51,203 nucleotides of DNA from Candidatus Micrarchaeota archaeon (GTDB lineage Archaea; Micrarchaeota; Micrarchaeia; Anstonellales; Bilamarchaeaceae): contig JACCLI010000077.1 of the NCBI GenBank assembly GCA_013425455.1, forward strand, positions 1-51,203, given 5' to 3'. Position numbers and translations under genes: made by a program. Every line of letters starts with the position of its first letter. The first letter of the stretch is position 1. Shown here piece after piece: positions 3,481 through 42,098 of the stretch. The notes under the pieces are model-generated. The model was not told where the DNA came from. It saw only the letters and a program-made list of their open reading frames with translations, and made no database searches.

Positions 3481-4398
3481 TCACTCCGCCGCCCCAATCC
3501 AAAGGTCCAGCGCCACGCCAAGCTCCTTCGCAACCATCGAAGAAAGGGGCCTGAAATCCCCATCATCCGCGCTTTCCAGCGCATCGTAATAGGACTTGCG
3601 CACCCTCCTCCGCAGAACTATTGGTGGAAACCCTGCCCTCATCAACCTCAGGTTCGAAAGCAGCCGCGCCATCCTCCCGTTTCCGTCCACGAAGGGGTGT
3701 ATCCACGAAACAAGGTGGTGGATTTTTACCGCGGATTCAACCGCCGCGGCGCCCTGCCTCTTTGAGTTCAGCTCGGTTATGGCCTCTTTCATCAGCCCCG
3801 GGACATCCTTCCATTTCGGCGGCATGTGCCTGGACTGCGTTATGAACACCTGCTCCCTTCGATAAAACCCCGCATTCCCCGGGCTTATCCGGTCAAGGAT
3901 CGCCGCGTGCAGCGCCAAAACGTCGCATTCAGCCACCTTCGCCTTCCTGTCCGCGATTTTTCCAAGCAGATGGAGCGCCTCGCGGTGGTTGGTCGCCTCA
4001 AGGTGCTCCCTCATGCTTTTCCCCCCTATCGTTATCCCTTTCTCAAGCACCAGGTAGGTCTCCTTGAGCGAAAGCCTGTTGCCCTCTATCGCGTTTGAGT
4101 TGTAGGTCATATCCACGTCGAATTTCTTCGCAAGGCTTTCAAGCGTATTCCTGGGCAGGGGCCGCAGCCCGTTCAGTTTTTTCAGCTTCCCTTCCAGCGC
4201 GAATGCGGTCCCCTTGTCAAGCATCGCGTATTTCATCGTAGGCGGCTTCAGCCCGTGCCTTTTGCAGTGTTCCAGCATCTTTTCGCGGTTCCCCAGATAC
4301 CTGAGAACGTGCTGCCTCGCCTTGCCGCCCTCCCGCACGCTCTCCACAAGCTCGTAGTAGAATGTTGAGCCTTTCTTCCTTTCCCGCACGAATGCCAT
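3481..4398 (-). CDS. Fic family protein (AMPylase-type), class II with an internal inhibitory helix
   Basis: 305-aa ORF. The canonical Fic motif HPFVDGNGRMARLL matches HxFx(D/E)GNGRxxR. SNAIEGN upstream matches the (S/T)xxxE(G/N) inhibitory motif. The N-terminus KGSTFYYELVESVREGGKARQHVLRYLG is a segment common in Fic proteins. Confidence 0.9.
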   Translation of the reverse strand: MAFVRERKKGSTFYYELVESVREGGKARQHVLRYLGNREKMLEHCKRHGLKPPTMKYAMLDKGTAFALEGKLKKLNGLRPLPRNTLESLAKKFDVDMTYNSNAIEGNRLSLKETYLVLEKGITIGGKSMREHLEATNHREALHLLGKIADRKAKVAECDVLALHAAILDRISPGNAGFYRREQVFITQSRHMPPKWKDVPGLMKEAITELNSKRQGAAAVESAVKIHHLVSWIHPFVDGNGRMARLLSNLRLMRAGFPPIVLRRRVRKSYYDALESADDGDFRPLSSMVAKELGVALDLWIGAAE

Positions 4399-5634: not shown

Positions 5635-8600
5635 ATGCCTGCCGGAGCGCTGATGGAGCAACCTGGAACTTCTGCAGCCCATATGGTTGAGGAGACCCAG
5701 GCGATGGCCGCCGCCCTGCGCAGCCAGCTTTCCCAGAATTCCAATGCGCTTGCGGGAACTCCCTGCCCCGCCGATATTTTCAGCGGGCTGGATGGGCTCG
5801 CCGAGGAGCGCGTGCATCAGTTTGAGAGCTTCGTGCGTGGGGAATCCTTCTCGGTTTCAGGAAGCGGGATGGGCCGCGAGAACCTTGAGCGCCTTCAGGG
5901 GATTTCTGCCGCTCTTGAGCAATATGGCATAGTAGTTGAAGTGGATCCGGAAGGAGGCAGCTTCACCTTAACCAACAACAATTACATCCCGTTGAGCGTA
6001 ATAACGGAAGAAACGCGTGTTGCGCTCGCCGAGGCCAACAATTTTGCTTCAGGCTGCCTCGAGCAGGCGGATTCCCTGATTTCCCAGGGAAGGCTTGGTG
6101 AGGCAGATGCATACCTTCGGTGGGCCGGGGCAATACAGGCGAGATATTCGGAATATGTGGAGGGCGCAAGGTTCCTGGATGAATTATTTTCCGAGAAGGA
6201 CGGGCTTTCTTCGCTTCCCTCCGAAGGAATTGACGATCCGGGCCGCGCAAGGGAAAAGCTAAGCGAAATCGTAGGATATCCTATTTCCGCGCAGGATTTC
6301 CCTGCGGAATTTGAGCGCAGGATGGGAGTAAGCTGGGAAGATTTCAAGGATAGAGGGTTCGCCTCTTTGGTGGTGCGGAGCATTGACGATGCGATTGGGA
6401 AGATGCAGGAAGGGCTTTCCGCGCTGGAAACGCGGCTGCGCGAGATGTGCGCCGCATCCTCCGAAGCCATAATTGGTGCAGATATGCAGGCATACCTCCC
6501 GCCGCAGGAATATTTGGAGGATGTTTTATTTGCGAGGGATTCTGCCCTTTTTTCTACGGGCATAAAGAAGGACATACTCACAGTAACGGAAGTGAGGGAT
6601 GTAGCGGGAAAACTTAGGGATGAGCGGTTTGAGGGCGTACATGAGTCTGATCTACTTGATATGCTTGATGAAGAAAGGGACCGCATTAAGGGAATGTACG
6701 TGGAGGCGGCGAGCAATCTTGTGGAATCCATTTTACTGAAGGCTCTGATTCCGGTGGGCGAAGGGGCGGAACGCAATGCCGAGATGGAGAGCAATTACGC
6801 GCGGGCACAGGAGGCAAGGCTGAGGGGAGCAGAATTCCTCGCAAGGGGGGAAGGGATGATTCCAGGGCTGAATGCGAAGTATGCTCTTGCCTCCCGGTAT
6901 GCTGGGGTGCAGGATGCGCTGATGGCTAATGATTTTGGGAATGTCGGCACATCGGACCGCGAAGAGCTCATTACAGAGAGGAACAACCTTGTAGATGAAA
7001 TCTCACGCGCGGTAAGGGAAGGCGGCGAAGTGGAAAACCTTGAAGGCAGGATGGCTTCGCTGGACAGGAGCTACACATATATGCAAATCAGGGATTTCTG
7101 GGCGGCCTACCAGTTCGAAGGGGTCGAGGGTGTTGCTGGGAAATTTCGCCTGGAAAGGGACAGGGATGCACTGTTGGATTCCCTTGAGGCTTCACTGCAG
7201 AGCGGCAGCGAGATAGTTAACCTTGACGCGCGGCAGGGTGAGCTGCTTGCAATGCACGAGCGGTGCGCCGCATACGAGCTGCTCGTGAAAACGATTTATG
7301 CCAGCCAGAAGGAAAGGATAGAGGGCATCCAAAATCAATTTTATGAATGGAACGATTCTGTGGAGTACAACCTCAACAGAATTCCCGGGGAAGTGAGGGG
7401 GATAATAGCAACCCCTGGCTTTGAATTTGCCTCCACAGGAGACTACTGCGTTGACACCAATGCCCTTCTTGCGGATTATACCCAAACAAAAAGGCAAATC
7501 AAGAATGATATGTACGGCCTTAGGGACGAAGTGAGAATAGGGTTGGGGGCACTGCTGGGCAATCTTGATGCGTGGTATAACGAGGCGATGGGATACGCGC
7601 CGGTTGATATCGAACTCGACGATTCAGGGGACAACATCACAAATCTCCGCGAGCGCTTCTCATTTGATACGAACCCTGCGCTGGCTAGGCTCAGGGATAT
7701 CCACCAGAACACGGAAGTGGCAGCTGCACACCTCTCGGAAAGGATAGCCGTCATAAATAATCCATTTAACCAGATGGTAAATGAACTCAACAAGATAGTG
7801 GAGTCGCAGCGAACCATCGCAGCCATGTACCAGCTGGCGAGCGCGCTTGACCTGGTGAGTACCGCAACTGTTGGTATATTGGCAGTATGGAACCTCCCCA
7901 CCGTATTCGCAGCAGGCAGGAGCATAGCCAATGCGGGTCGCTCGGCGCTTGCAAGCATAGAGGCAGTATCCCCGGCTGTTGCTACGGGAATAAGGCTTGG
8001 CGCCACCGGCTTATCCCTCGGGTTGAGCGCTTATGGGGGCGTGAAATTCAGTGAAGGGGTGAGCCGGTTAAGGTCGGCAGAAACCGCAGAAGAGAAAGTG
8101 GCCGCAGCCGAACAGATGTTCGAGGGGGCGCTATGGATAGGCTCGCTGGGCTTTGCCTCGCGGCTTTCCCCCGAACTTCTCCGTACGGCGCGCGCAATGT
8201 CAGTAGGGCTGGATCTGGCTTCGATTGCGGCCATTGCCCCTTCCGTTGCCTCCCTCGGCTACGCAATGAGCGAGAGAGGGGATGTAAGCGGATGGGATGT
8301 TGCGAAAATCGCTTTCTGGACCGGCCTGGCGATTACCGGCGCATATGTCGGGATAAGGGTAGCGGGAGGCATGAGGGCGGTTGCGAGGGAAGGCGCGGAG
8401 ATTGCAGGAGAGGCGAAAATAATTTCTATAGATGAATTTGCGCGCGCAATCAGGGAGGCGCCTCCGCCACAGGGGGCCAGGGTTGCGGCAGAAGCTGCTG
8501 CGCCTCCCGCGCCTTTTGTCAGGGAAGCGGAAGCGGCTGCGCCCCCAGGTGCGGTTGTGCCGGAGAGGGTTCCAGCTCCGCGCACAACTCCCGCGGGGCC

Positions 8601-9579
8601 GGCGGCTGCAGAACGGGCTGCTCCGGAAGTTGCGGAAGCGGAGGTTTCCGCGGCCGCAGGGAGGCCCAGCATTTCACTTGTCCCGCGTCCGCAGATGATG
8701 CCGGAACCGGAGGTGGCACAGCGCCTTAGGGAACTGCTCGGCATCGAAGAAGGGCAGGCCGCAACAATGGCACGCGAAGCCACGGCTCGAGGCGTGGACA
8801 TGGCCGAGAGGTTTCAATACATCCGGGACTTTGCAGAAGGGCAAGTCCTAAGGGCACTTCGAGCCCGTTTACTACAAGAACCCGAAGTCTTATATGGAGA
8901 GAAATTCTTTAAGGTGTTTAGCGATTTAGAAAAAAGTGTTCCAGATGCGATAGTAGCCGCGCATAACAGAGCCGGAATCAGGCCACCGGAGGAAGGGGTG
9001 GCCTTAACAAGGGAGGAAATCCGCAAGCTCAGTGATTTGGGGTTGGATTACTTCAGGGACCCCACTGTCCTGCTGCGGGACCTACGAGCTATTTCTAGGG
9101 CGCAAGAGCTTCCGGCTGAGCAGAGGCTGGCCAGGTATATAGACGACTATCAGACAGCCCCCCAAGGAATAAATACTGAAATAAGCACCACCACTGCAGG
9201 GGCTGTAGAGGCACTCCAAAGAATGGGATTCGAATTTGTAAGGGAAGTGAGGGGAAATCACGACGAGTATAGGCGTGCTCTTGCAGATGGAACAATCCAA
9301 ACAGTGGAACTGACCAGAAATCGTGATTATAGTGCTAAACTGCTTAGAACTTACCTACTTGATGATATACGGCGCGGCCAGCGGGAACATTTAATCGACC
9401 AGGGAAGGGAGAGGGAAGCATTCATTAATGAATTTGCCGAAGCTTTCCGCTCGCCACGTTCTTACGAACCGCCGCCGCAGATAACGCTGGCGGAGGCACA
9501 AGAACTTGCCCGGGCAAGGGGTGAGACAAGAAGGGCTGCCGGACAAGAAGGAAGAAGAAGACGTGCTGCGGGGGAGTGA
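5635..9579 (+). CDS. Giant (1314 aa) multi-domain protein: long helical N-region, Gly/Ala-rich TM cluster, Pro/Ala linker, HicA-like C-terminal domain
   Basis: Single uninterrupted ORF. Hydrophobic Gly/Ala-rich helices at about nt 7810..8390 (e.g. VAKIAFWTGLAITGAYVGIRVAGG). A PA-rich linker at about 8450..8700. Nt 9202..9378 encode AVEALQRMGFEFVREVRGNHDEYRRALADGTIQTVELTRNRDYSAKLLRTYLLDDIRRG, which follows the HicA/YcfA pattern (L..GF..vR..GSH......g..v.v........tl..il...g). Confidence 0.8.
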   Translation: MPAGALMEQPGTSAAHMVEETQAMAAALRSQLSQNSNALAGTPCPADIFSGLDGLAEERVHQFESFVRGESFSVSGSGMGRENLERLQGISAALEQYGIVVEVDPEGGSFTLTNNNYIPLSVITEETRVALAEANNFASGCLEQADSLISQGRLGEADAYLRWAGAIQARYSEYVEGARFLDELFSEKDGLSSLPSEGIDDPGRAREKLSEIVGYPISAQDFPAEFERRMGVSWEDFKDRGFASLVVRSIDDAIGKMQEGLSALETRLREMCAASSEAIIGADMQAYLPPQEYLEDVLFARDSALFSTGIKKDILTVTEVRDVAGKLRDERFEGVHESDLLDMLDEERDRIKGMYVEAASNLVESILLKALIPVGEGAERNAEMESNYARAQEARLRGAEFLARGEGMIPGLNAKYALASRYAGVQDALMANDFGNVGTSDREELITERNNLVDEISRAVREGGEVENLEGRMASLDRSYTYMQIRDFWAAYQFEGVEGVAGKFRLERDRDALLDSLEASLQSGSEIVNLDARQGELLAMHERCAAYELLVKTIYASQKERIEGIQNQFYEWNDSVEYNLNRIPGEVRGIIATPGFEFASTGDYCVDTNALLADYTQTKRQIKNDMYGLRDEVRIGLGALLGNLDAWYNEAMGYAPVDIELDDSGDNITNLRERFSFDTNPALARLRDIHQNTEVAAAHLSERIAVINNPFNQMVNELNKIVESQRTIAAMYQLASALDLVSTATVGILAVWNLPTVFAAGRSIANAGRSALASIEAVSPAVATGIRLGATGLSLGLSAYGGVKFSEGVSRLRSAETAEEKVAAAEQMFEGALWIGSLGFASRLSPELLRTARAMSVGLDLASIAAIAPSVASLGYAMSERGDVSGWDVAKIAFWTGLAITGAYVGIRVAGGMRAVAREGAEIAGEAKIISIDEFARAIREAPPPQGARVAAEAAAPPAPFVREAEAAAPPGAVVPERVPAPRTTPAGPAAAERAAPEVAEAEVSAAAGRPSISLVPRPQMMPEPEVAQRLRELLGIEEGQAATMAREATARGVDMAERFQYIRDFAEGQVLRALRARLLQEPEVLYGEKFFKVFSDLEKSVPDAIVAAHNRAGIRPPEEGVALTREEIRKLSDLGLDYFRDPTVLLRDLRAISRAQELPAEQRLARYIDDYQTAPQGINTEISTTTAGAVEALQRMGFEFVREVRGNHDEYRRALADGTIQTVELTRNRDYSAKLLRTYLLDDIRRGQREHLIDQGREREAFINEFAEAFRSPRSYEPPPQITLAEAQELARARGETRRAAGQEGRRRRAAGE

Positions 9580-19166: not shown

Positions 19167-19431
19167 GTGATGGGCTAGGCGGGGGCCAGGGGTCCCCATT
19201 CCGCAAATCCCCTTTAGGCGGGCTGAACGCCCGGGGCGTGATTCGCCCGTTTTGCGTCTTTCATCTAAAGCGTCGAAGCCCTCCCTTCTGGGACAGGGGC
19301 TTTATGCGAACCGGGTCAGGCCGGAAGGAGCAGCCCTAAGCGTAGTGCCCCGTGCTCAGGAGCAAGGGGGTGGAGCTGATGGTGAAAGCTCCGCATGGCG
19401 GACGCTTCGCAATCCGGGAAGCCCATCACTC
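19167..19431 (+). ncRNA. Signal recognition particle RNA (archaeal 7S/SRP RNA)
   Basis: The 5' GATGGGCTAGGCGGGGG pairs with the 3' AGCCCATC. The conserved helix-8 region is ACCGGGTCAGGCCGGAAGGAGCAGCCCTAAG. It ends before a T5 run. Ends are estimated by eye (plus or minus 5 nt). Confidence 0.8.
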
Positions 19432-23655: not shown

Positions 23656-23665
23656 TATTTAAATA
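23656..23665 (+). promoter_or_regulatory. TATA-box-like TATTTAAATA about 21 nt upstream of the ATG at 23686 (leaderless or short-leader transcript)
   Basis: The position and sequence fit the archaeal TATA consensus. No Shine-Dalgarno sequence lies between it and the ATG. Confidence 0.4.
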
Positions 23666-23685: not shown

Positions 23686-26600
23686 ATGGGAAATGCTGGT
23701 AGAACGTGTGCAGTGACACTCTTATCCCTACTTCTCCTCATGCCCCTCGCGTTCTCCCTGTCCGCGACCGCCTGCGCCTCTTGCGGCCTGACCGAGATAT
23801 ATGCCGGCTTCACTCCTGAGGACGCCAGCATGAATGTCGTGCTCACCTCTGACTCCGTGGATTACAGCCAGGTGCGCGACCCTGAGCAGCTGCGCCAGCA
23901 GTACCTGGAGTTCCTTGAAGAAAATTACAACATAGATATCCCCTCCTCCGAGCGGACCGTAACGATCGGGCCGGTCCCAGACGCCAGCATATTCTTCTAC
24001 TACGAAACCTACTCCGTGGACTCAGCCACAGGCAAGCTTGTCTCCACCCGGGCCCAGCTCGAATGCGGCGGAGTCGCCGGCCCGGTCAAGACCGACTCCA
24101 ACGGGGTCGCGAAATGCAAGCTTGATCCCTCCATTTTCACCGGCAAGTGCACCCGCGTCTACATACAGTTCCAGGGCACGCCTTCCCTCAATCCCGCCAC
24201 TTCTTCGGTGCAGGTATGCGATTCCGAGAGCGACGCCTTCTCAGCCATGGCGTCCGCGCTTTCCGGCATAAGCCAGGCCTCCGTGGGCCAGCCGCTCTGC
24301 ATAGTCGCCTTCCTCATACTGGGCCTGTTCATCGCCTCCATGTTCTTCAGCGGCAGGAGCCCGCTCGCCCTCCTGGACATAACCACCCCCCTCCTGCCCA
24401 AGCCGAAGGCCATCTCGTACAGCGGAATGTCCTTCGGGACCGGATATATTCGGATGAGGCGGGAATTGGCGAGCAGGATAAACATATCCTCTAGCATACT
24501 CAAGAGCCAGGCCGCCTTCCTCAAGGCAGACCTGCTCCGCAAGGGCACTAGCCTCAGGGACATAAACGAGATACTCACGCTTGCCAAGGGGAGGCCCCAC
24601 ATAGCCTACCTGGCGCTCCGCGCTTTGAAGGAGGGGAAGACCATGCAGGAGGCTAAGGCGATCGCCGGCCTAAACCCGGGCTTTGGCAAGGGCCAGAAGG
24701 AGGAGGAGTTCGCGGAGGCCCGCAAATGGATAAAACTTCTCCAGAAAGGCGAGAAGGACAAGGCCCTGGACATGCTGACGGACAGGTTCACTGCAGAGAT
24801 GCTTGACAAGGAGGTCGGGCGCATAACCGGCAACGTGCCCGGCAAGCTCGCGAACACCCTGAAGACCGTCCTTGACCACAAATACTCCCCGCTCAAGTAC
24901 ATGATGCCCGAGACCATACGCGAGCAGATAAGGGTCGGCCTGGGCTCAGCATTTTTCGGCGGCCGCAGCGTTGTAGGCGTGACTAAGGTGGCGGCGAAGG
25001 GGCTGGTCCGCGCCGGAGCCGCCGGCCTCACAGCGCTCACAGGCAAGCAGTACAACATCCTCCCATACACCGAGGAGGAGAAAAAGGCGCGCCAGTTCTT
25101 TCTCATGGACATCCGCTCACGCATAGAGCAGTTCTACAAGGTGCAGATGCAGGAGGCGAAGGCCAACGTGGCCATGTACGTCACAAAAAGGCTTCTTGAG
25201 TCCAAGGGCGTCAAGTTTGACCTGAGCGAGAAGGAGCTCCTCGGCCTCGGAAAGATAGAGATCCTTGAGAAGATGAACCTCAAGAACAACCCCAAGGCGG
25301 CCCAGCTCGCCGCGGAGATAAGCAGGATACTGCAGTCCACCGACAAAATTGATGAAAAGATAAGGCTTCTCCGGGCCCTTGCGGATTCCAGCGGCGCCAG
25401 CTATGACAAGGCCGGAGTAAACAGCTTCCTCAACAAGCTTGCGTCTATAGACTCGTCCGGCTCCTACCGCACGAAGCTCCAGAGCCTCCATGACTATCTC
25501 GAAAACAAGTACGAGGTCCACAAGCTGAACTCGGACTTCCGCGGTACCGGGGACAATTTCTACCCGTGGGTCGGGAGGCACAGCTTCCGCTATGTTGTGG
25601 AGGGCGGAACAAAATACGACGACACCTGGAAATTCATGTTCCTCAGGAGCTTTGTCGAGCAGAACGAAAAGGGCCAGAAGGGCATCTCCCTGGGCGACAC
25701 GGCGAAAGTCCTCTGGCTGCGCCTCGTGAACGAGATGTGGGGCCTCTTCCCCTCGGACATGAAGGGCCTCCCGACCGAGCAGCGCCTGATGATGAAGCAG
25801 GCCGAGGAATACCTCCTGAGCCTCCTCTCAGAAAAGGGAAAGGAGATACTGAAGAACGGACTTGTCCTCCCTTCCAAATTCGACGAGAATGGCAATATAA
25901 TCCAGGAAGGCAAGCCAATAAAGATGACCAGCCCGCTCGAGCTCCTCTACAACCCGACAATCGCAAAATCCGGCCTTTTTGTGGGCCAGGAGCTGGCCCG
26001 CGAGATGGGCGCGGACGCCGCCCACTGGAATGTGGACATGCGCGGCTACTGGCGCACCCTGGTCCCGGGCTCCTCCGTCCTTGATTTCGACAACATAGGA
26101 AAGACATCCGTGATGGAGCAGGCATTCGGCGCCGCCTACCGCTCCCACATCGGGCGCAACGTAAGCCCCGAGGTCTTCATGAAGGAGCAGGCGCGGGAAA
26201 TGTTCTACAACCGCATCGTGAGCATGATAGGCTCCAAGTATCCGGACGCCTACCAAACCGGCAGGCAGGAATTCCGCTTCCTGGCCTCCACCTACGGCGC
26301 GTTCAAGGAAAGGTACGCGGAGATATTCGGCCTCACCCCGGAGCGGAAGAAGGACGCCAGCTGGGTGACGGACGACATGGTCGCGGAAATGGTCAAGAAG
26401 GGCGTCAACATAAACGATCTCCACAAATTCGTGTGGATACGCACCAGGGAGGGCAACTACGTCCCGTTCACCGAGGGAAGGGAAGGCTTCGGCATGAGGG
26501 TGAGCGACGGCGAGAGGATAATCAACGGCAAGTTCGTGTACAACGCCGGCAGCCACTGGGAGAGCTTCAACAGCACAAAGCTCCGTGAGAAATACGGAAG

Positions 26601-28587
26601 GCTCCTGGACCTTCCAGCAGAGAAGGGCGGCTTGCTTTCCGCCTCCCTGTTCAAGGAAATGAAGGAAATTGACAACCTTGTGAGGGCCTCCCAGCAGTCC
26701 ACGGAGGGGATGTTCAAGAAGAGGGAGCTCGACCCGAAGCTCAAGGAGCGCATGGTGAATTTTTCTAACGACGTGATAACCTGGGGCGGAAAGACCAGGA
26801 GGGACGCCGCCGCATACATCGTCTTCGACCTTTGCAAGAGGGTGAACGACTTCTCCATAGTGGAAAACAGCAAGTTCCTCTCCATACAGGCAACCAAGGA
26901 CGTCGGGTCAGTCGGCTTCAGGAAATTCCAGGAAAAGGTCTGGCTTCCGTTCGCAAAGGGCGCGGAGTCCCTCATGATATCCTCCTTCCTTCCCCAGCTC
27001 AACGAGCTCCAAAACGTGACGATGCTCTCGGAGCACCTGCGCGCCCGCACCGCTGAATACTCGGCGCGCTATGCAATGAGCCTCGCGGACCCGACATACC
27101 CGGACAAGTCCATCAACAGGGAGCTCCACAGCCAGATGATTGATCTCATGGACTCGATGAACCGCTACCGCTCGGTATGGGACAGCACAATCACCAGGGA
27201 CCCGCGCGGCAACTCATCCTCGTTCGGCCCCCAGCTCAATTTCGCTTCGTTCTACCACCACGGCCCCGCGCGCCCCTTCGCCCCGGTCACAACCCTCGGC
27301 GAGTTCAGCGGGCGCACCCTCAGGCAGTCCCTTGAGTCCCTCCGCATGATGCCGCTGACCATCAACTGGCTAATCGGGGAGCCGTTCGCCCTCATGGTGA
27401 GGGGTGCGATGACTTCCATGTACGGCTACCCAGGCAAGCACGACAAGACCTACCACCCGCTCCATCCCTACGCGATGACATCCGGCAGGCCCACGGACGC
27501 ACTCCGCTCTCTCTTCGACCCGTTCCATGCTGCCCTTGATTTCTCGTCCGGCACGTTCAGGAAGACTGCCGCCATGGGCCTTTCCATGTTCCACACGGCG
27601 GCAAGCCCGCTCACCCACTCCCTCGACTATGTTTCCGGAAAGATGGGCGAGTCCAGCATCCCGGGCATGGGGATGGCCTCAAGGGCCCTGGGCTGGGTCT
27701 CCGATGTCTTCAAGCCGGAAACCACGATGCATGCCAACCCGGAATTCTACCTCCCCAGCTACATCCAGAAGAGCAGGGTGCGCGAGCTGCTCGGCGGCGA
27801 CATGACCATGCGGGAGTACGGGGGGAAGGCGATGGCGGACGGCATAGTCAGGACGCACGAGGACCACACCTGGATGTACAAGAACATAAACGTCATCTGG
27901 AACGTCAACACCAACCCGGGGATATCATACATTGATTTCTACTACAACATGCATGCTGACCCGCGCCTCGCGTCCCACCTCGTGTCCGGCTCCCGCTACT
28001 CCTCCTTCTTCTCCCAGGACAACTACCTGCAGCAGCAGGCCAACCTTGGGATAGTGAAGAGGGATGTCTCGGCGTACGAGCTCGCGGAAGTGAGGGAGAG
28101 CGAGATGCGCCAATACATGAGCCCAAGGGAGAACCGCATGTGGGGCCTGCTCAACCCTATCTCCTTCCTGTACAACAACCCTATATTCCCGCTCTCCATC
28201 GCCTCATGGGACTTCATTACCCACCGTTCCTGGGAGAAGTTCAAGGACATCAAATCCTCCTGGTCCAAGAGGAGTGAGTACGCCCAGACCGGGGGCAGCC
28301 AGCAGTTCATGTCAGGAGTGCCCATCGGCCCGCTCTCGCAGACAAACTACGAGACGTTCCAGAGCCGCGAGATCCACCCCAGCGAGATAGAGAACGTGGC
28401 CGAGCGCTGGATAAGGAAGACCGGCCATTTCTTCTCCTCGGCGTTCACCTACAATACATATGCATACTGCCAGGTCTGCGGCTCCCCAATGCCAAGGGGC
28501 GGCACCTGCGGCGTCTGCTCGGGCAAATCCATTTTATTGCTTTGGAGCAAAAGGAAGTGGGCAAGGCCTCCGGGTGCTTCACCATGA
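23686..28587 (+). CDS. Giant (1633 aa) membrane-anchored protein: signal peptide, ~165-aa Cys-containing ectodomain, one TM helix, ~1400-aa uncharacterised region, C-terminal zinc ribbon
   Basis: Single ORF. N-terminus MGNAGRTCAVTLLSLLLLMPLAFSLSATA. TM helix QPLCIVAFLILGLFIASMFFSG. C-terminus YCQVCGSPMPRGGTCGVCSG (CxxC-x8-CxxC). No other domain recognised by eye. Confidence 0.8.
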   Translation: MGNAGRTCAVTLLSLLLLMPLAFSLSATACASCGLTEIYAGFTPEDASMNVVLTSDSVDYSQVRDPEQLRQQYLEFLEENYNIDIPSSERTVTIGPVPDASIFFYYETYSVDSATGKLVSTRAQLECGGVAGPVKTDSNGVAKCKLDPSIFTGKCTRVYIQFQGTPSLNPATSSVQVCDSESDAFSAMASALSGISQASVGQPLCIVAFLILGLFIASMFFSGRSPLALLDITTPLLPKPKAISYSGMSFGTGYIRMRRELASRINISSSILKSQAAFLKADLLRKGTSLRDINEILTLAKGRPHIAYLALRALKEGKTMQEAKAIAGLNPGFGKGQKEEEFAEARKWIKLLQKGEKDKALDMLTDRFTAEMLDKEVGRITGNVPGKLANTLKTVLDHKYSPLKYMMPETIREQIRVGLGSAFFGGRSVVGVTKVAAKGLVRAGAAGLTALTGKQYNILPYTEEEKKARQFFLMDIRSRIEQFYKVQMQEAKANVAMYVTKRLLESKGVKFDLSEKELLGLGKIEILEKMNLKNNPKAAQLAAEISRILQSTDKIDEKIRLLRALADSSGASYDKAGVNSFLNKLASIDSSGSYRTKLQSLHDYLENKYEVHKLNSDFRGTGDNFYPWVGRHSFRYVVEGGTKYDDTWKFMFLRSFVEQNEKGQKGISLGDTAKVLWLRLVNEMWGLFPSDMKGLPTEQRLMMKQAEEYLLSLLSEKGKEILKNGLVLPSKFDENGNIIQEGKPIKMTSPLELLYNPTIAKSGLFVGQELAREMGADAAHWNVDMRGYWRTLVPGSSVLDFDNIGKTSVMEQAFGAAYRSHIGRNVSPEVFMKEQAREMFYNRIVSMIGSKYPDAYQTGRQEFRFLASTYGAFKERYAEIFGLTPERKKDASWVTDDMVAEMVKKGVNINDLHKFVWIRTREGNYVPFTEGREGFGMRVSDGERIINGKFVYNAGSHWESFNSTKLREKYGRLLDLPAEKGGLLSASLFKEMKEIDNLVRASQQSTEGMFKKRELDPKLKERMVNFSNDVITWGGKTRRDAAAYIVFDLCKRVNDFSIVENSKFLSIQATKDVGSVGFRKFQEKVWLPFAKGAESLMISSFLPQLNELQNVTMLSEHLRARTAEYSARYAMSLADPTYPDKSINRELHSQMIDLMDSMNRYRSVWDSTITRDPRGNSSSFGPQLNFASFYHHGPARPFAPVTTLGEFSGRTLRQSLESLRMMPLTINWLIGEPFALMVRGAMTSMYGYPGKHDKTYHPLHPYAMTSGRPTDALRSLFDPFHAALDFSSGTFRKTAAMGLSMFHTAASPLTHSLDYVSGKMGESSIPGMGMASRALGWVSDVFKPETTMHANPEFYLPSYIQKSRVRELLGGDMTMREYGGKAMADGIVRTHEDHTWMYKNINVIWNVNTNPGISYIDFYYNMHADPRLASHLVSGSRYSSFFSQDNYLQQQANLGIVKRDVSAYELAEVRESEMRQYMSPRENRMWGLLNPISFLYNNPIFPLSIASWDFITHRSWEKFKDIKSSWSKRSEYAQTGGSQQFMSGVPIGPLSQTNYETFQSREIHPSEIENVAERWIRKTGHFFSSAFTYNTYAYCQVCGSPMPRGGTCGVCSGKSILLLWSKRKWARPPGASP

Positions 28588-30914
28588 AACCAAGAATCCC
28601 ATTTTTGCTCCTGCTCCTCACGCTCCTGATGTTCGGCTGCATCGACCCGCAGTATTACGAGCGCTCAACCGCGGGCGAGGGCGCGGTGCTCGACATGTCC
28701 CTCGCGAACGCCTGCCCGACAGGGGACTGCATGTGCATGGCCTGCGACGCGCACGGGATGGCCGACCCGGTGTATGCGAAATTCTACACCTTCTCCTATT
28801 ACTACGAGGAGTGCAAGTTCACGAAATGCAACGAGACGGACTTCAACACATACATGAACGCGGAGCCCAACAATGAAAAGATGAACTTTTTCATGATAGG
28901 GCAGGGAGGCTTTGGCGAATTCAACAAGGCCAACCCCTACTGCAACAATTCCCTGCGCATGCCGGTCAAATGGCTGGACAGCCGCTATGGCGCCGGAGAA
29001 TACCCGCTCCCGGACGCCAGGCGCGCGGGCTGCTTCCTAGACAAGGGGTCCATCCCCCTCTACATCCTCTACAGCCGCGGCCAAGCGGCCAGCCCCTCCC
29101 GCGCAGAGGAGATCGCCCACCTTTTTTCCGGGACCATCCTTGGCGACATGGGCCCGATAATCATCACCGCGGAGTTTGAGTTCAACTCCTCCAACCCCGC
29201 AATCCGCGAGAACGTCTCGGCCCAGGTGAAGGCCATGAAGCGCGCCTGCCCGGACTGCCTGATAGCTCTCGCCCCGCGCATATGGGACAACTCCACTGAA
29301 TTGGAAGAGATGTTCCAGGACCAGGCATTCAACAATTCCGTGGACCTTTTCGCCTTTGGGATAAATTCCCATGACTTTAACACCTGCGACCCGACCCGCA
29401 TATATTCGGACGCGGTCCAGTATTCCGAATATCTCCTTTACAAATACAAAAAGCCGTCCGTGTGGGCGTACATCCTTTTCGACAACGACTGGAGCGCGGA
29501 CCAGAGCTGCCACTGGGACGAGTCCCTCCTTTCCAGGGCTTACACGGATTTCTACACGTACCAGCCCGCCTTCCCGTCCACCGGGGTCATCGGCGCGTCC
29601 CTCTATTCAATGTACGGAATAGGCTCCCTCAACTGCACGGACTGCGGCCTTTTCAACATCTCCGGGGACCCCATCGCCTCCAGGCAGGCCTCCTGGTTCT
29701 CCAACTGCCAGGGGCTATTCGCAACATCCAGCGTCCTTCCCATCGTTTTCAGCAACGCCCCGGGCACAACGTGCGCCTTCGGCCAGTCTGCATACAGCTA
29801 CACCGGGGATTCCAGCTTCTACACGGAGCAGCCCGTCCCCACGGAGCCTGCCGGCGCCTGGCCCCAGTTCTACAGCTGCGACTCCTGCATGGTCGAGGTC
29901 AGGCCGGCCTCGATAATGATTTCCCCGAACACGGCATTCAGCGACAGGGCATGCACAGACTTCCCTGTCCTTGACGTATACTCAGACATCCGGGACATAG
30001 ACCCCGCGTACGTGCGCGCCCTTGTCTGGTGGGAAAGCGGAGGCTTCGACGACTGCGAAGTCGGCACCTCAGGCGCACCATGCGGCCGCGTAACGCCCAT
30101 GTATGAGGTTATTGATCCCGACGGACGCTGCCCGGCATACGCGACCCCGTCCTACCAGCGCCCGTCCAAGCATGCCTGCGACATGGGGCTCATCCCGGTC
30201 TTCTCGCCCCCAGAGGACTATTGGGCCGGAATCACCTTCAAGGACTGGATGTATGCCCCGGAAGGAGAGCTTGCAATCGCAAAAGCATGCGCCGGGGATG
30301 AGAAGTTCAACCCCTTCAACGTTGAGCACAACGTCTGCCTTGGCACCTACGAGGTCGCCCAGCACATAAAAACTGCCGAAGGCATTGTCGCATCGAACGA
30401 GGGCCGCCTCGGCCTCACGGCAATAAAGAACGAATACGGCGAGGAGGAATACGAAAACGCAAAAGGCCTCGTTACCCTTTTCATCGCCCGCACGCAGTTC
30501 ATAGCCCCGGAGGTCTGGTCCACCTATGGAAACAAATGGATGAACGATTTTACCAAATATTCAAATTATGACGACCATTTCTGCAGCGGAACTTCTGACC
30601 ACCAGTGCTGCGACAGCGGCCATGTCAGGTATGACCTGAGGAACTGCTGCGGAAGCTCCGATTTCATAAGTTTCGTGACCGACGACACCTGCTGGACGCT
30701 CACGGGCACCAATGTGGAAGAAAAATACAGGGACCCGATCATGAACGCAAAGAAAATAATGGCTCTTTATCTGGGCGTGCGCGAGAAATGCGGAATCTGC
30801 GACGGAGAAAAGTGGAGGGAAAACGTTGAGGAATGGGCGTCCCGGACACCCGAGGGCCCGCGCCCGGCGGTCCCTTCCGTAACAGTTGTTCCGGCTACCT
30901 CCATAATCCCCTAA
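28584..30914 (+). CDS. Cys-rich lipoprotein-like secreted protein (776 aa) with a possible SLT/lysozyme-like domain
   Basis: ATG at 28584 overlaps the upstream stop (ATGA). MKPRIPFLLLLLTLLMFGC is a lipobox-like signal. VRALVWWESGGFDD ... ACDMGLIPV ... FNPFNVEHNVCLGTYEVAQHI resembles SLT motifs ES..F / GLMQ / NI..G..YL. The N-half shows alternating beta/alpha blocks (IPLYILYS, GPIIITAEFEFN, CLIALAPR, VDLFAFGINSH, SVWAYILFD). Confidence 0.75.
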   Translation: MKPRIPFLLLLLTLLMFGCIDPQYYERSTAGEGAVLDMSLANACPTGDCMCMACDAHGMADPVYAKFYTFSYYYEECKFTKCNETDFNTYMNAEPNNEKMNFFMIGQGGFGEFNKANPYCNNSLRMPVKWLDSRYGAGEYPLPDARRAGCFLDKGSIPLYILYSRGQAASPSRAEEIAHLFSGTILGDMGPIIITAEFEFNSSNPAIRENVSAQVKAMKRACPDCLIALAPRIWDNSTELEEMFQDQAFNNSVDLFAFGINSHDFNTCDPTRIYSDAVQYSEYLLYKYKKPSVWAYILFDNDWSADQSCHWDESLLSRAYTDFYTYQPAFPSTGVIGASLYSMYGIGSLNCTDCGLFNISGDPIASRQASWFSNCQGLFATSSVLPIVFSNAPGTTCAFGQSAYSYTGDSSFYTEQPVPTEPAGAWPQFYSCDSCMVEVRPASIMISPNTAFSDRACTDFPVLDVYSDIRDIDPAYVRALVWWESGGFDDCEVGTSGAPCGRVTPMYEVIDPDGRCPAYATPSYQRPSKHACDMGLIPVFSPPEDYWAGITFKDWMYAPEGELAIAKACAGDEKFNPFNVEHNVCLGTYEVAQHIKTAEGIVASNEGRLGLTAIKNEYGEEEYENAKGLVTLFIARTQFIAPEVWSTYGNKWMNDFTKYSNYDDHFCSGTSDHQCCDSGHVRYDLRNCCGSSDFISFVTDDTCWTLTGTNVEEKYRDPIMNAKKIMALYLGVREKCGICDGEKWRENVEEWASRTPEGPRPAVPSVTVVPATSIIP

Positions 30915-31258
30915 TGCTTGTGCCCGTTCAATCTCTTTTTCCAATAGTAGTAAGTCCTTCTGGACATCCCGAGCGCTTCCAGCCTCTCCTTCTCGCCCTT
31001 CGCCTCTTTCAGGACGCGCAGGAACTCCTTCTCGTCGAATTCCCTGGGCCTTCCTCTCTTCCCTTCCCTCACTTCCACATTGATGCTTCTCCTGAGGCTC
31101 TCCATGACCTTTTCCGGCACGGTCTTCGCAATCCCGCTGTTCATGCAGACCCTTTTCGCCTTGGTCGCATCCAGCAGGAGCGCGAACACCTTCACGCTCG
31201 GCTTGGTCTTTATGAAGAACTCCTCGCCCCTGGGGTGGGCTAGTATCGTATCCAGCAT
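30911..31258 (-). CDS. Small protein with a C-terminal Hin/resolvase-type HTH
   Basis: GRPREFDEKEFLRVLKEAKGEKERLEALGMSRRTYYYWKKRL. The start is moved to the ATG at 31258 (MLDTIL) to remove a 71-nt overlap with the upstream gene. Its stop codon overlaps the stop of the convergent 776-aa gene. Confidence 0.55.
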   Translation of the reverse strand: MLDTILAHPRGEEFFIKTKPSVKVFALLLDATKAKRVCMNSGIAKTVPEKVMESLRRSINVEVREGKRGRPREFDEKEFLRVLKEAKGEKERLEALGMSRRTYYYWKKRLNGHKH

Positions 31259-31280
31259 CTCCCTCCTGCTCCCCCTGAGC

Positions 31281-32591
31281 TCAATTTCCCTTGATTCTTC
31301 TGACAAATTCTGCACCACGTTTTCCCTCTTTGAAATTTTTGAGCACTTCAAATGCGCCGCGCGCCTTCCCCTCGTCTATCCCGATGTATCCGGAGACCCA
31401 CTTCGCATCCTTCCCGCCGCCTTCCAGCAGCACAGCCGCCCCGAGCTCCTTGCCCCCAAGTGGAACGCTTCCTTCCAGCCCGAGCTTCCTTTTGAGCATG
31501 GACCTCGCAGGCACCCCTTCTTCCTCTATGTAAGAGAACAGCATAAGGTGGTTCTCCCCCGGCGTAACCGCCAGCGAGGGATAAAGGTTCTCCTTCCTCC
31601 TTCCTTCCTCATTGTTCGTAAGGTAAAACTTGAATATCGGCGAAAGGAGCAGCAACGCCGCCCTCCTCTGCGTCTCCTCCCTTCTCTTCCTCCTCCTCGC
31701 CATAATCTCCTTCTTGATGCCCTCCTTCATCATGAACTCGCTGTCCTTCCTCGCGAGGAACCCCCTCTTCACAAGCGCGGCCTTCACCTCCGTGAAACCC
31801 TCCACCGTATCCATCCGCACGTCCGGCCTTATCCCGAAATTCTTCAATATGGAGTTGTATTCGCCCACTTCCCCCTCCGCGTTCTCCATGCCCCTGCCCA
31901 CGCTCTTCGCGGCATAATGCACTATGGAGGAAAGCAGGGAGATGCGTACTCCTTTTGAGGAAATGATAGGAACCCTCTTGAACCCGGGCCTGGTCGAAAC
32001 CACTTCCGCGCCCACCCCGAACATTTTCGAAACTTTGAGCTCCAGGTTCTCGTTGTCCGCAACCTGCACAGTCTCCGTCTCCCCGTTGAACTTAACCTTT
32101 GCGATGAAGCACCCCTTCCTCTCGCTCGCCTGCTCCACCTTGTCCGATAGTTCCCTATACGCTATAATCCCGTCATCCCCAGCGTCCATCAGCAACCTTA
32201 TATGGTTCCCGTCCAGGGGGAGGTGGTTTGCGATGTCCGAATATCCCATCTTGAGGAATCCCTTCGCGACCCGGTGCGCGTCCAGCGCGATGCTCACCCT
32301 CGCCAAACTATATTTCTTCAAATTGGCAATATACCTGAAGTAACCCATCTGCTTCTTCAGGTCCGCCCAGTCCGCCTCGCTCAGCTCGTCCGCCTCGTCC
32401 ACCGTCTTCTGCACAAGGCCCCTGAACGGGCTGTTGAACCCGGACTCGCCCATCTTTTCCTTGAGCGCCTCCAGCTCCCCCACATTCTCCTCATCATATG
32501 CGCTTATCCCTTTCAATAGTTCGTTCGCCTTCTGCACGTAAGCCATCGAGGGCAGCACTTCCAATTCCTTTTCGCTGATCACGGCAACCAC
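31281..32591 (-). CDS. Hypothetical 436-aa protein immediately downstream of top6A
   Basis: Long ORF with no motif recognised. The GTG start at 32591 overlaps the top6A stop; an alternative ATG is at 32546. Contains a basic KKEIMARRRKRREETQRR segment. Confidence 0.65.
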   Translation of the reverse strand: MVAVISEKELEVLPSMAYVQKANELLKGISAYDEENVGELEALKEKMGESGFNSPFRGLVQKTVDEADELSEADWADLKKQMGYFRYIANLKKYSLARVSIALDAHRVAKGFLKMGYSDIANHLPLDGNHIRLLMDAGDDGIIAYRELSDKVEQASERKGCFIAKVKFNGETETVQVADNENLELKVSKMFGVGAEVVSTRPGFKRVPIISSKGVRISLLSSIVHYAAKSVGRGMENAEGEVGEYNSILKNFGIRPDVRMDTVEGFTEVKAALVKRGFLARKDSEFMMKEGIKKEIMARRRKRREETQRRAALLLLSPIFKFYLTNNEEGRRKENLYPSLAVTPGENHLMLFSYIEEEGVPARSMLKRKLGLEGSVPLGGKELGAAVLLEGGGKDAKWVSGYIGIDEGKARGAFEVLKNFKEGKRGAEFVRRIKGN

Positions 32592-42012: not shown

Positions 42013-42026
42013 AATTAGAAAAAGAG

Positions 42027-42098
42027 AGCCCCGGACGAGGATTGAACTCGCGGCCTCGTGCTTACCAAGCACGCGCTCTGCCACTGAGCTACCGGGGC
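42027..42098 (-). tRNA. tRNA-Thr (anticodon GGU)
   Basis: Hand-folded as GCCCCGG-TA-GCTC-AGTGGCA-GAGC-G-CGTGC-TTGGTAA-GCACG-AGGCC-GCGAG-TTCAATC-CTCGT-CCGGGGC-T. All four stems pair (one G-T wobble). No encoded CCA. Confidence 0.93.

Follow-up and report, generated by a model that had tools for sequence, protein, structure and literature searches.

Gene pair and its conservation

The window considered here is a stretch of 51,203 nucleotides of chromosomal DNA from Candidatus Micrarchaeota archaeon, a Micrarchaeia archaeon of the DPANN group (GenBank assembly GCA_013425455.1, contig JACCLI010000077.1, forward strand), and its main subject is a pair of overlapping genes on the plus strand. Gene 1 (23686..28587), which starts with ATG, encodes a bitopic giant protein of 1633 amino acids (aa) from a Micrarchaeia-specific family, and gene 2 (28584..30914) encodes a secreted, Cys-rich protein of 776 aa with a lipobox. 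An initial annotation, made from the sequence alone, had described an overlapping pair of these two sizes joined at an ATGA, and both open reading frames (ORFs) are indeed present: at the junction, caccATGAaa, the ATG of gene 2 (28584) overlaps the TGA of gene 1. An in-frame TTG further upstream, at 28542, would lengthen gene 2 to 790 aa (28542-30914, plus strand), which is also the length of a near-identical database entry (P0017); the N-termini of the homologues nevertheless favour the ATG at 28584 as the start. Both are regarded as real genes rather than chance ORFs because of their homologues, which amount to 12 full-length relatives and about 100 clusters for gene 1 and to 21 sequences for gene 2.

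The genomic context was retrieved for six homologues, three of them reached through gene 1 and three through gene 2, and every time a gene of 1606-1860 aa is followed directly by one of 632-879 aa, the downstream proteins being recognisable as gene 2 homologues by BLASTP down to the most divergent loci. Another 11 loci, all from Micrarchaeota, came from scanning the GTDB species representatives with strict patterns, whose reach does not extend to the cultivated acidophilic Micrarchaeota. In total, tblastn places both genes adjacent, in the same order and on the same strand in 20 of 20 related loci, which bears out the supposition that the two belong together. Overlaps at the junction recur in three of these loci (L001, L005 and L009). 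The pairing is kept even at ~20-27% identity and among unrelated neighbours (L002, L003 and L005), and since the neighbours in L002 and L005 are quite different, the linkage is more than a frozen gene order. The Topo VI genes lie beside the pair in L001, L003, L007 and L009, and in L001, L007 and L009 the DUF530 gene is also close by, as in the window; this recurrent arrangement points to vertical inheritance, and the chromosomal synteny of the pair is conserved across orders. Taken together, the two genes are strictly linked and probably co-translated.

The named homologues all come from metagenome-assembled genomes of the Micrarchaeota type, including Anstonellales and Bilamarchaeaceae, and their lineage is the class Micrarchaeia, placed in the phylum Microcaldota in the current NCBI taxonomy. 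The early guess that the DNA belongs to a host-dependent archaeon is thus in keeping with the lineage, Micrarchaeia of the DPANN group. In the databases all homologues are named “hypothetical protein”, except for one “Ig-like domain-containing protein” and one “Uncharacterised protein”, and literature searches found no prior description of the pair. In one metagenome assembly (L008, 1380-6328) the giant gene is split into ORFs of 977 aa and 671 aa, and in a sister assembly (L007, 5019-9968) it forms a single ORF of 1649 aa next to a partner protein identical to that of L008; the split therefore represents either a frameshift, and hence a pseudogene, or an assembly error.

Direct reading and a consensus scan revealed a TATA-box-like element, TTTAAATA (23658..23665, plus strand), whose centre lies ~25 nt before the start codon of gene 1. 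The element may act in an archaeal promoter, in which case the mRNA of gene 1 would be leaderless.

Gene 1 encodes a bitopic protein with a large cytoplasmic body

The N-terminal hydrophobic segment of gene 1, read as a signal peptide, spans aa 1-29 (23686..23772; hydropathy segment 9-29) and is followed by a conserved C30-xx-C33, in agreement with the N-terminal family consensus MGxAGxKxLxxLLLLLLL...SPCxxC. The ectodomain (aa 30-200; 23773..24285) is acidic and rich in Ser and Thr, and the alignment shows conserved Cys at positions 127, 144, 155 and 178. In the protein as a whole, eight Cys lie within residues 1-205, and beyond them only C1050 and a terminal Cys4 motif are found. A weak Big_3_5 match was detected in the N-terminal region of the distant member P0125, which NCBI names “Ig-like domain-containing”, and the ectodomain of the window protein carries the pattern TDxNGxAxC, which is common in bacterial Ig-like domains. 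The ectodomain of gene 1 thus probably includes a small Ig-like β domain.

A single transmembrane (TM) helix follows at aa ~203-222 (24292..24351), where the hydropathy reaches its maximum (2.64 on the Kyte-Doolittle scale), with an invariant C205 at its outer end; this helix is conserved in all divergent loci. Immediately after it stands the juxtamembrane motif SGRSPLALLDITTPLLPKPK (aa 222-241; 24352..24408), the most conserved part of gene 1: block 201-250 has a conservation of 0.82, the highest of the protein, and the family form SGRSPLxLLDITTPLLPKPK is kept in L002, L003, L005, L007 and L009 at 20-30% overall identity; across 62 sequences its residues G, P, D, P, P and K hardly vary. Two other stretches, at ~1160-1290 and ~1370-1500, are conserved as well. 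In L005, the most divergent locus, BLAST detects the giant only in the region comprising the ectodomain and the TM helix, and the partner keeps its barrel domain (see below); this pattern, together with the concentration of constraint at the TM helix and juxtamembrane segment, fits an interface between the two proteins at or outside the membrane.

The remainder of the protein includes a cytoplasmic body (aa 242-1527; 24409..28266), a linker (aa 1528-1594; 28267..28467) and a C-terminal zinc ribbon (aa 1595-1611; 28468..28518). An AlphaFold2 (AF2) model of residues 434-1633, built on a 62-sequence alignment, reached a mean predicted local distance difference test (pLDDT) of 82.4 and a predicted template modelling score (pTM) of 0.84, and it describes one compact, mostly α-helical body, resolved for aa 434-1527, then a low-confidence stretch and then the ribbon. 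The linker, with pLDDT <50 at model residues 1095-1161, is probably disordered. For the terminal motif the initial annotation had given CxxC-x8-CxxC; the ribbon itself stands, but the central spacing is nine residues (C1595-xx-C1598-x9-C1608-xx-C1611). Its four Cys do not vary among 13 sequences and reach at least 90% conservation among 62, the model places short strands at its residues 1159-1161 and 1168-1170, and weak Pfam zinc-ribbon matches occur in members of the family, so that by sequence the Cys4 tail is a zinc ribbon with predicted metal binding. Several members (L007, L009, P0038, P0039, P0060, P0063 and P0064) have six to seven Cys within the final 70 residues, pointing to another zinc knuckle behind the conserved ribbon.

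Across 36 members, Cys are concentrated before the TM helix (2.65 per 100 aa, as against 0.14 in the body), net charge changes from -0.4 before the helix to +2.1 after it, and the tail contains exactly four Cys in 27 members and six or seven in another seven. Because of these three features, the small N-terminal part is placed outside the cell and the bulk inside, as had been proposed at the outset; the hydropathy scan and the Cys positions likewise agree with the signal peptide, Cys-containing ectodomain and single TM helix described then.

With respect to known proteins, a word-indexed search returned 12 full-length relatives of gene 1 at 44-49% identity and a few distant ones, and repeating it with a 62-sequence profile gave only close relatives and a single further taxon name, Bilamarchaeaceae. 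When 1.84 billion representatives were searched exhaustively by HMMER with a profile covering residues 434-1633, 101 clusters (50% identity) emerged, 72 of them at E <=1e-30; almost without exception these are proteins 1500-2000 aa long, or pieces of such proteins, and no other architecture occurs among them. Foldseek comparisons of the gene 1 model produced nothing meaningful, either against the PDB (best E 0.32, probability 0.05, TM-score <0.1) or against BFVD (best E 0.17). No family match was obtained in Pfam, NCBIfam, PHROGs or PADLOC, and the profile retrieved only zinc-ribbon and coiled-coil noise from the PDB sequences. When aligned members were run singly against Pfam, two of 13 gave a HrpJ match (E = 0.003), judged to be due to chance, and the only other matches were zinc-ribbon noise. 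No Pfam ATPase or NTPase domain is present in gene 1 or its relatives. As no internal repeats were found, the protein is not a repeat solenoid, and a metalloenzyme suggested by a “HEDH” stretch was rejected, the His residues not being conserved in distant members. Gene 1 therefore appears to have no known family or fold within reach of the searches of PDB, BFVD, Pfam, NCBIfam, PHROGs and PADLOC, and the absence of a recognisable domain noted initially holds.

Gene 2 encodes an exported protein with two probable glycan-cleaving-type domains

Gene 2 starts with MKPRIPFLLLLLTLLMFGC and contains 34 Cys and eight N-x-S/T sequons. Its signal peptide (28584..28640) has a lipobox-like end, MKPRIPFLLLLLTLLMFG|C19, that is LLMFG|C19, in which G18 is nearly invariant and C19 invariant within the family; in every gene 2 partner from the other loci a hydrophobic segment is likewise followed by GC, and two members show weak LPAM_1 matches. 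The protein probably is a lipobox lipoprotein, with lipidation predicted at Cys19. The window protein has no family match in Pfam or NCBIfam, and its profile retrieved nothing from the PDB sequences; the domains described below were delineated mainly from the AF2 model based on the 21 homologues (pLDDT 80.4, pTM 0.82) and from the alignment.

The N-terminal domain (aa ~46-400; 28719..29783) is modelled, mostly at pLDDT 80-97, as a (β/α)8 barrel resembling glycoside hydrolase (GH) clan GH-A, with candidate catalytic residues E197 and D300. Foldseek of the gene 2 model against the PDB gave 207 matches at E <=0.001; all of the 50 matches listed are glycoside hydrolases, and those named to a family belong without exception to clan GH-A, among them GH2 β-glucuronidases, GH5 and GH26 mannanases, GH53 galactanases and GH10 xylanases. 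The best matches range from E 2e-7 to 3e-5, with a target TM-score of ~0.5. In the model, gene 2 has the barrel fold of the clan. E197 follows strand 193-195 and is invariant both in the 21 sequences and in ten divergent partners; D300 follows strand 292-298, is invariant in the same 21-sequence set and corresponds to D or E in eight of the ten divergent partners. The numbering of the strands is taken from DSSP of the AF2 model only.

The C-terminal half harbours a domain resembling SLT enzymes of the GH23 type, i.e. lytic transglycosylases and lysozymes (aa ~455-660; 29946..30563), which was recognised from motifs, weak Pfam matches and hhalign. The alignment reveals the motif order DPAxVRAxxxxES (with E484), a Cys-rich insertion of ~35-45 residues, GLMQ and FNPFNPxHxxCxGT, the last of these also written FNPFNxxHxxCLGT. 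Helix 474-485 ends with E484 and S485; E484 does not vary among the 21 sequences and recurs in ten of ten divergent partners, so that, judged from alignment and model, E484 is the catalytic-type Glu of an E-S motif at a helix end. Motif II in the form G(L/I)MQ occurs in ten of the 21 members and as GLMM, GIMM or GLTQ in three more, and a strand of the model (530-534) lies where motif II would be expected; the order helix-strand-strand-helix in this half of the model fits a lysozyme-like fold. Pfam SLT (PF01464) matches six of the 21 members at E <=0.1, covering profile positions 5-84 of 117. In hhalign comparisons with the single E. coli sequences Slt70 and MltE, E484 falls on the catalytic Glu (P = 0.0014-0.05, over the ES helix only), a match that alone is too weak to prove SLT membership, and the Foldseek list for the whole model is filled by barrel matches. 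On balance, a lysozyme/SLT-like domain is probable here, as far as motifs and model can indicate. The most divergent partner (L005, 5461-7359; 632 aa) keeps the barrel and lacks most of the SLT-like domain. The protein ends with a helical, Cys-rich extension (aa 661-755; 30564..30848) that includes CC doublets at 675/676 and 688/689 and CGIC at 736-739.

The barrel and the SLT-like domain agree with the outward-facing lipoprotein with glycan-hydrolase features that had been predicted for gene 2. Of the outcomes named initially as speaking against the proposal, homology to a known family applies to gene 2, at the level of fold or motif, and not to gene 1. Gene 2 is accordingly best seen as a variation on known kinds of enzymes, and the novelty rests on gene 1 and on the system.

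A putative surface module for glycan cutting

From these observations we infer the following scheme, which rests on sequence and structural models. Gene 1 and gene 2 would be expressed from one, probably leaderless, transcript, with the ATGA overlap coupling translation of gene 2 to that of gene 1. The gene 2 product would be exported, with a probable lipid anchor at Cys19 and many stabilising disulfides, and would carry two glycan-cleaving-type domains, the GH-A-like barrel (E197, D300) and the SLT-like domain (E484), with which it may cut a β-linked glycan polymer outside the cell. Gene 1 is predicted to cross the membrane once and to place a small, disulfide-bonded and probably Ig-like ectodomain next to this enzyme; its ectodomain, TM helix and juxtamembrane segment would hold or position the lipoprotein, and the cytoplasmic body with its tethered zinc ribbon would couple the place or the activity of the lipoprotein to something intracellular. 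The favoured target would be a glycan on the surface of a host or partner, or in the surrounding matrix, with attachment, local opening of an envelope or scavenging of sugars, by a symbiont whose own sugar metabolism is poor, as possible outcomes. The pair is thus tentatively read as a two-protein module of the cell surface, specific to Micrarchaeia and inherited vertically, in which a putative glycan-cutting activity is tied to a novel cytoplasmic scaffold; we consider this reading in its entirety a possibility that falls somewhat short of an even chance.

A role directed at a host or matrix glycan is favoured on account of the host-dependent lineage, of extracellular SLT-domain proteins in other DPANN archaea, which have been proposed to act on the cell walls of partners (PMC8204110), and of the cultivated Micrarchaeon A_DKE, in which the surface-layer (S-layer) protein is glycosylated although the genome revealed no pathway for activated sugars (bioRxiv 10.1101/2021.04.28.441871). 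It is nevertheless important to stress that several points weigh against the scheme as a whole. In the barrel, the Asn-Glu of clan GH-A is absent, T-A preceding E197 (consensus T-x-E), the putative nucleophile is an Asp rather than a Glu, and the acidic residue at position 300 is absent in L003 and L005; the spacing of E197 and D300 does fit the 4/7 arrangement, but as the canonical Asn-Glu is missing the barrel is here called GH-A-like, without being assigned to the clan. None of the 21 gene 2 members is matched by a GH model of Pfam or NCBIfam. In the SLT-like domain, the best Pfam score (20.6 bits) lies below the gathering cut-off of 21.3, the window protein has no Pfam SLT match, and GLMQ is replaced by GLIP in the window and its seven closest relatives (eight of 21; residues 534-540, 30183-30203), E484 being kept; the substitution may reflect an altered substrate or activity. 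As for the substrate, to our knowledge archaea lack murein. The hosts known so far for cultivated Micrarchaeota, moreover, belong to the archaea as well (Thermoplasmatales and Sulfolobales), and for both reasons a lytic transglycosylase would have no obvious substrate. Finally, strict conservation across a class whose members have differing hosts argues equally for a target on the cell itself.

The last point leads to the main rival explanation, remodelling of the cell's own envelope, in which the lipoprotein would cut the organism's own wall polymer or S-layer glycan and the giant would tie this cutting to, for example, division. It would readily account for a single-copy, vertically inherited pair located among housekeeping genes with recurrent synteny, for the retention of residues at catalytic positions across lineages whose hosts must differ, and for the additional envelope layer of Micrarchaeota, described as an S-layer or outer layer; its logic would be analogous to that of bacterial membrane complexes that control extracellular wall hydrolases. 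However, no glycan wall polymer is known in Micrarchaeota, whose only demonstrated envelope layer is a protein S-layer, the conserved neighbours of the pair in the context loci include no gene for division or wall synthesis, and Pfam and Foldseek searches revealed no recognisable link of the giant to FtsZ or ESCRT; self-directed remodelling is considered rather unlikely. Less likely again is a bolder version of the host-directed scheme, a cell-contact machine common to Micrarchaeia and a new archaeal symbiosis apparatus without bacterial or eukaryotic counterpart, in which the body would oligomerise under the membrane, the ectodomain would control a dedicated double glycanase with which the surface of the partner is opened or gripped, and the zinc ribbon would recruit a cytoplasmic partner. 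A conduit through the envelope or a bridge between cells, with giant oligomers as a platform and a lipoprotein opening the partner's envelope for passage, appears improbable. The module does span the membrane in a host-dependent organism, combining under strict pairing a large rigid cytoplasmic body (pTM 0.84) with a lytic-type enzyme outside, and specialised SLT enzymes accompany envelope-spanning machines in bacteria, but each giant has one TM helix, and neither an ATPase motif or domain, nor a pore-forming or multi-pass partner, nor a third conserved gene was found in nine context loci; moreover, no direct cytoplasmic connection was observed in the cultivated Micrarchaeon ARM-1 (PMC8784108). 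The “trans-envelope apparatus” of the initial annotation is accordingly not supported as worded, as each giant has a single TM helix and the pair neither contains nor is conservedly flanked by an ATPase, pore-forming or multi-pass component, and for the lack of an ATPase and a channel, together with the one TM helix, a secretion or conjugation component was rejected as well.

The glycanase-like domains might alternatively have been turned into carbohydrate-binding modules, the pair then serving as a non-catalytic adhesin that does nothing but attach the cell to a glycan surface. GLIP as motif II in the subclade of the window, the barrel without Asn-Glu and with D300 lost in two lineages, and the L005 partner without most of the SLT-like domain would all be expected of such a protein; E197 and E484, however, are kept in every sequence examined down to ~20% identity, as expected of catalytic residues, which makes an adhesin very improbable. 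Hardly conceivable is the remaining option, a remnant of a virus or mobile element, with a tape-measure-like giant and a lysin, or an S-layer and stalk pair. A giant protein next to a lytic enzyme is a common arrangement in phages, and the S-layers of Sulfolobales are built from a membrane stalk and an outer protein, as cited in bioRxiv 10.1101/2021.04.28.441871. Against the former stand the synteny conserved across orders and the absence of PHROG matches, of BFVD structural matches and of viral genes nearby, on which grounds a prophage or mobile element was rejected. The latter was rejected on Cys content and topology, since the Micrarchaeal S-layer protein (~101 kDa) has almost no sulfur-containing residues (bioRxiv 10.1101/2021.04.28.441871) as opposed to 34 Cys in gene 2 and most of gene 1 lies in the cytoplasm; Pfam and NCBIfam searches revealed no S-layer domain either.

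Comparison with known systems

When compared with SLT/GH23 enzymes such as Slt70 and MltE, gene 2 shares the order of motifs, the invariant Glu and the succession of helix, small hairpin and helices, and differs from them in its score below the gathering cut-off, in the Cys-rich insertion between motifs I and II, in the fusion to a GH-A-like barrel and, in the window, in GLIP. The barrel, in turn, resembles clan GH-A in its fold and in having an invariant Glu after one strand and an acidic residue three strands later, whereas an identity of ~10%, the absence of any Pfam or CAZy-type match in sequence, the lack of Asn before the Glu, the Asp as candidate nucleophile and heavy disulfide bonding set it apart.

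Specialised lytic transglycosylases, namely VirB1, EtgA and FlgJ, serve bacterial secretion and flagellar machines. By functional analogy with these and with FtsEX-EnvC-amidase, a membrane-spanning component is encoded here together with a putative glycan-cleaving enzyme facing outwards; the pair nevertheless has no similarity to those systems in sequence or fold, no ABC ATPase and no secretion genes, and its membrane part is one bitopic protein whose 1400-aa body has an unmatched fold. Giant hypothetical proteins restricted to one lineage are frequent in DPANN genomes. The SPEARE proteins of Nanohaloarchaeum (Hamm et al. 2019) are reportedly located for the most part outside the cell and combine several domains, of protease, adhesion and nuclease type. 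Gene 1 resembles them in being very large, lineage-specific and encoded by host-dependent archaea, and SPEARE proteins are reportedly suspected of a role in host contact; gene 1 differs in being mainly cytoplasmic and in having no recognisable domain.

A published parallel for gene 2 is fam00969 of Pacearchaeota and Woesearchaeota, which comprises single large extracellular SLT proteins of up to 3000 aa (Castelle et al. 2021, PMC8204110); according to the paper, its module is largely missing outside these groups. Going by this published description, both are exported DPANN proteins with a domain like that of murein transglycosylases; unlike fam00969, which belongs to other DPANN phyla, gene 2 has 776 aa, is predicted to be anchored through a lipobox, is fused to a GH barrel and is always paired with a cytoplasmic giant. 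More generally, lineage-specific DPANN proteins are mostly unannotated (PMC8204110).

Other features of the window

The pair is embedded in archaeal housekeeping genes, which comprise those for CDC48, an M50 peptidase, a RIO-type kinase, RpiA, a major facilitator superfamily transporter and DUF359, as well as a Fe-hydrogenase-like protein, DUF530, the A and B subunits of Topo VI, GatD/GatE and NFACT; no integrase, viral or mobile-looking gene lies around the pair in the window. Between gene 2 and the DUF530 gene, a small ORF on the opposite strand (128-146 aa, without a Pfam match) recurs (30911-31351, minus strand, in the window; 17165-17563 in L001; 12285-12671 in L007; 12405-12815 in L009), its end converging on that of gene 2 with a slight overlap.

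Elsewhere in the window, an archaeal signal recognition particle RNA (98.8 bits) was located at 19168-19428 (plus strand), the mechanically called ORFs that overlap it probably not being genes, and a tRNA-Thr(GGT) at 42026-42098 (minus strand). A Fic/DOC-domain protein (3481-4398, minus strand) adjoins gatE. A second large ORF (5635-9579, plus strand; 1314 aa) is matched by nothing in Pfam, PHROG or PADLOC; residues ~740-900 form a hydrophobic stretch rich in Gly and Ala, residues ~930-1010 a linker rich in Pro and Ala, and the ORF may encode another lineage-specific large membrane protein.

Significance

The pair is regarded as new at the level of the system, with a function proposed on the grounds set out above. 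The molecular basis on which DPANN archaea recognise their hosts, hold on to them and exploit them is mostly unexplained, and the pair offers a concrete candidate for this. The predicted enzymology of gene 2, with two glycanase-type sites at E197 and E484, is directly testable in vitro, and gene 1, a confidently modelled architecture of 1200 residues without a relative in the libraries searched, lends itself to structural biology. As the cultivated relatives of these organisms live on archaea devoid of murein, the conservation of an SLT-type enzyme raises the question of which glycan it would act upon, the answer to which bears on the envelope of these organisms or on their recognition of host surfaces. 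Even if the pair were ordinary, for example an enzyme for housekeeping glycan trimming and its anchor, a new protein family and fold would be defined all the same.

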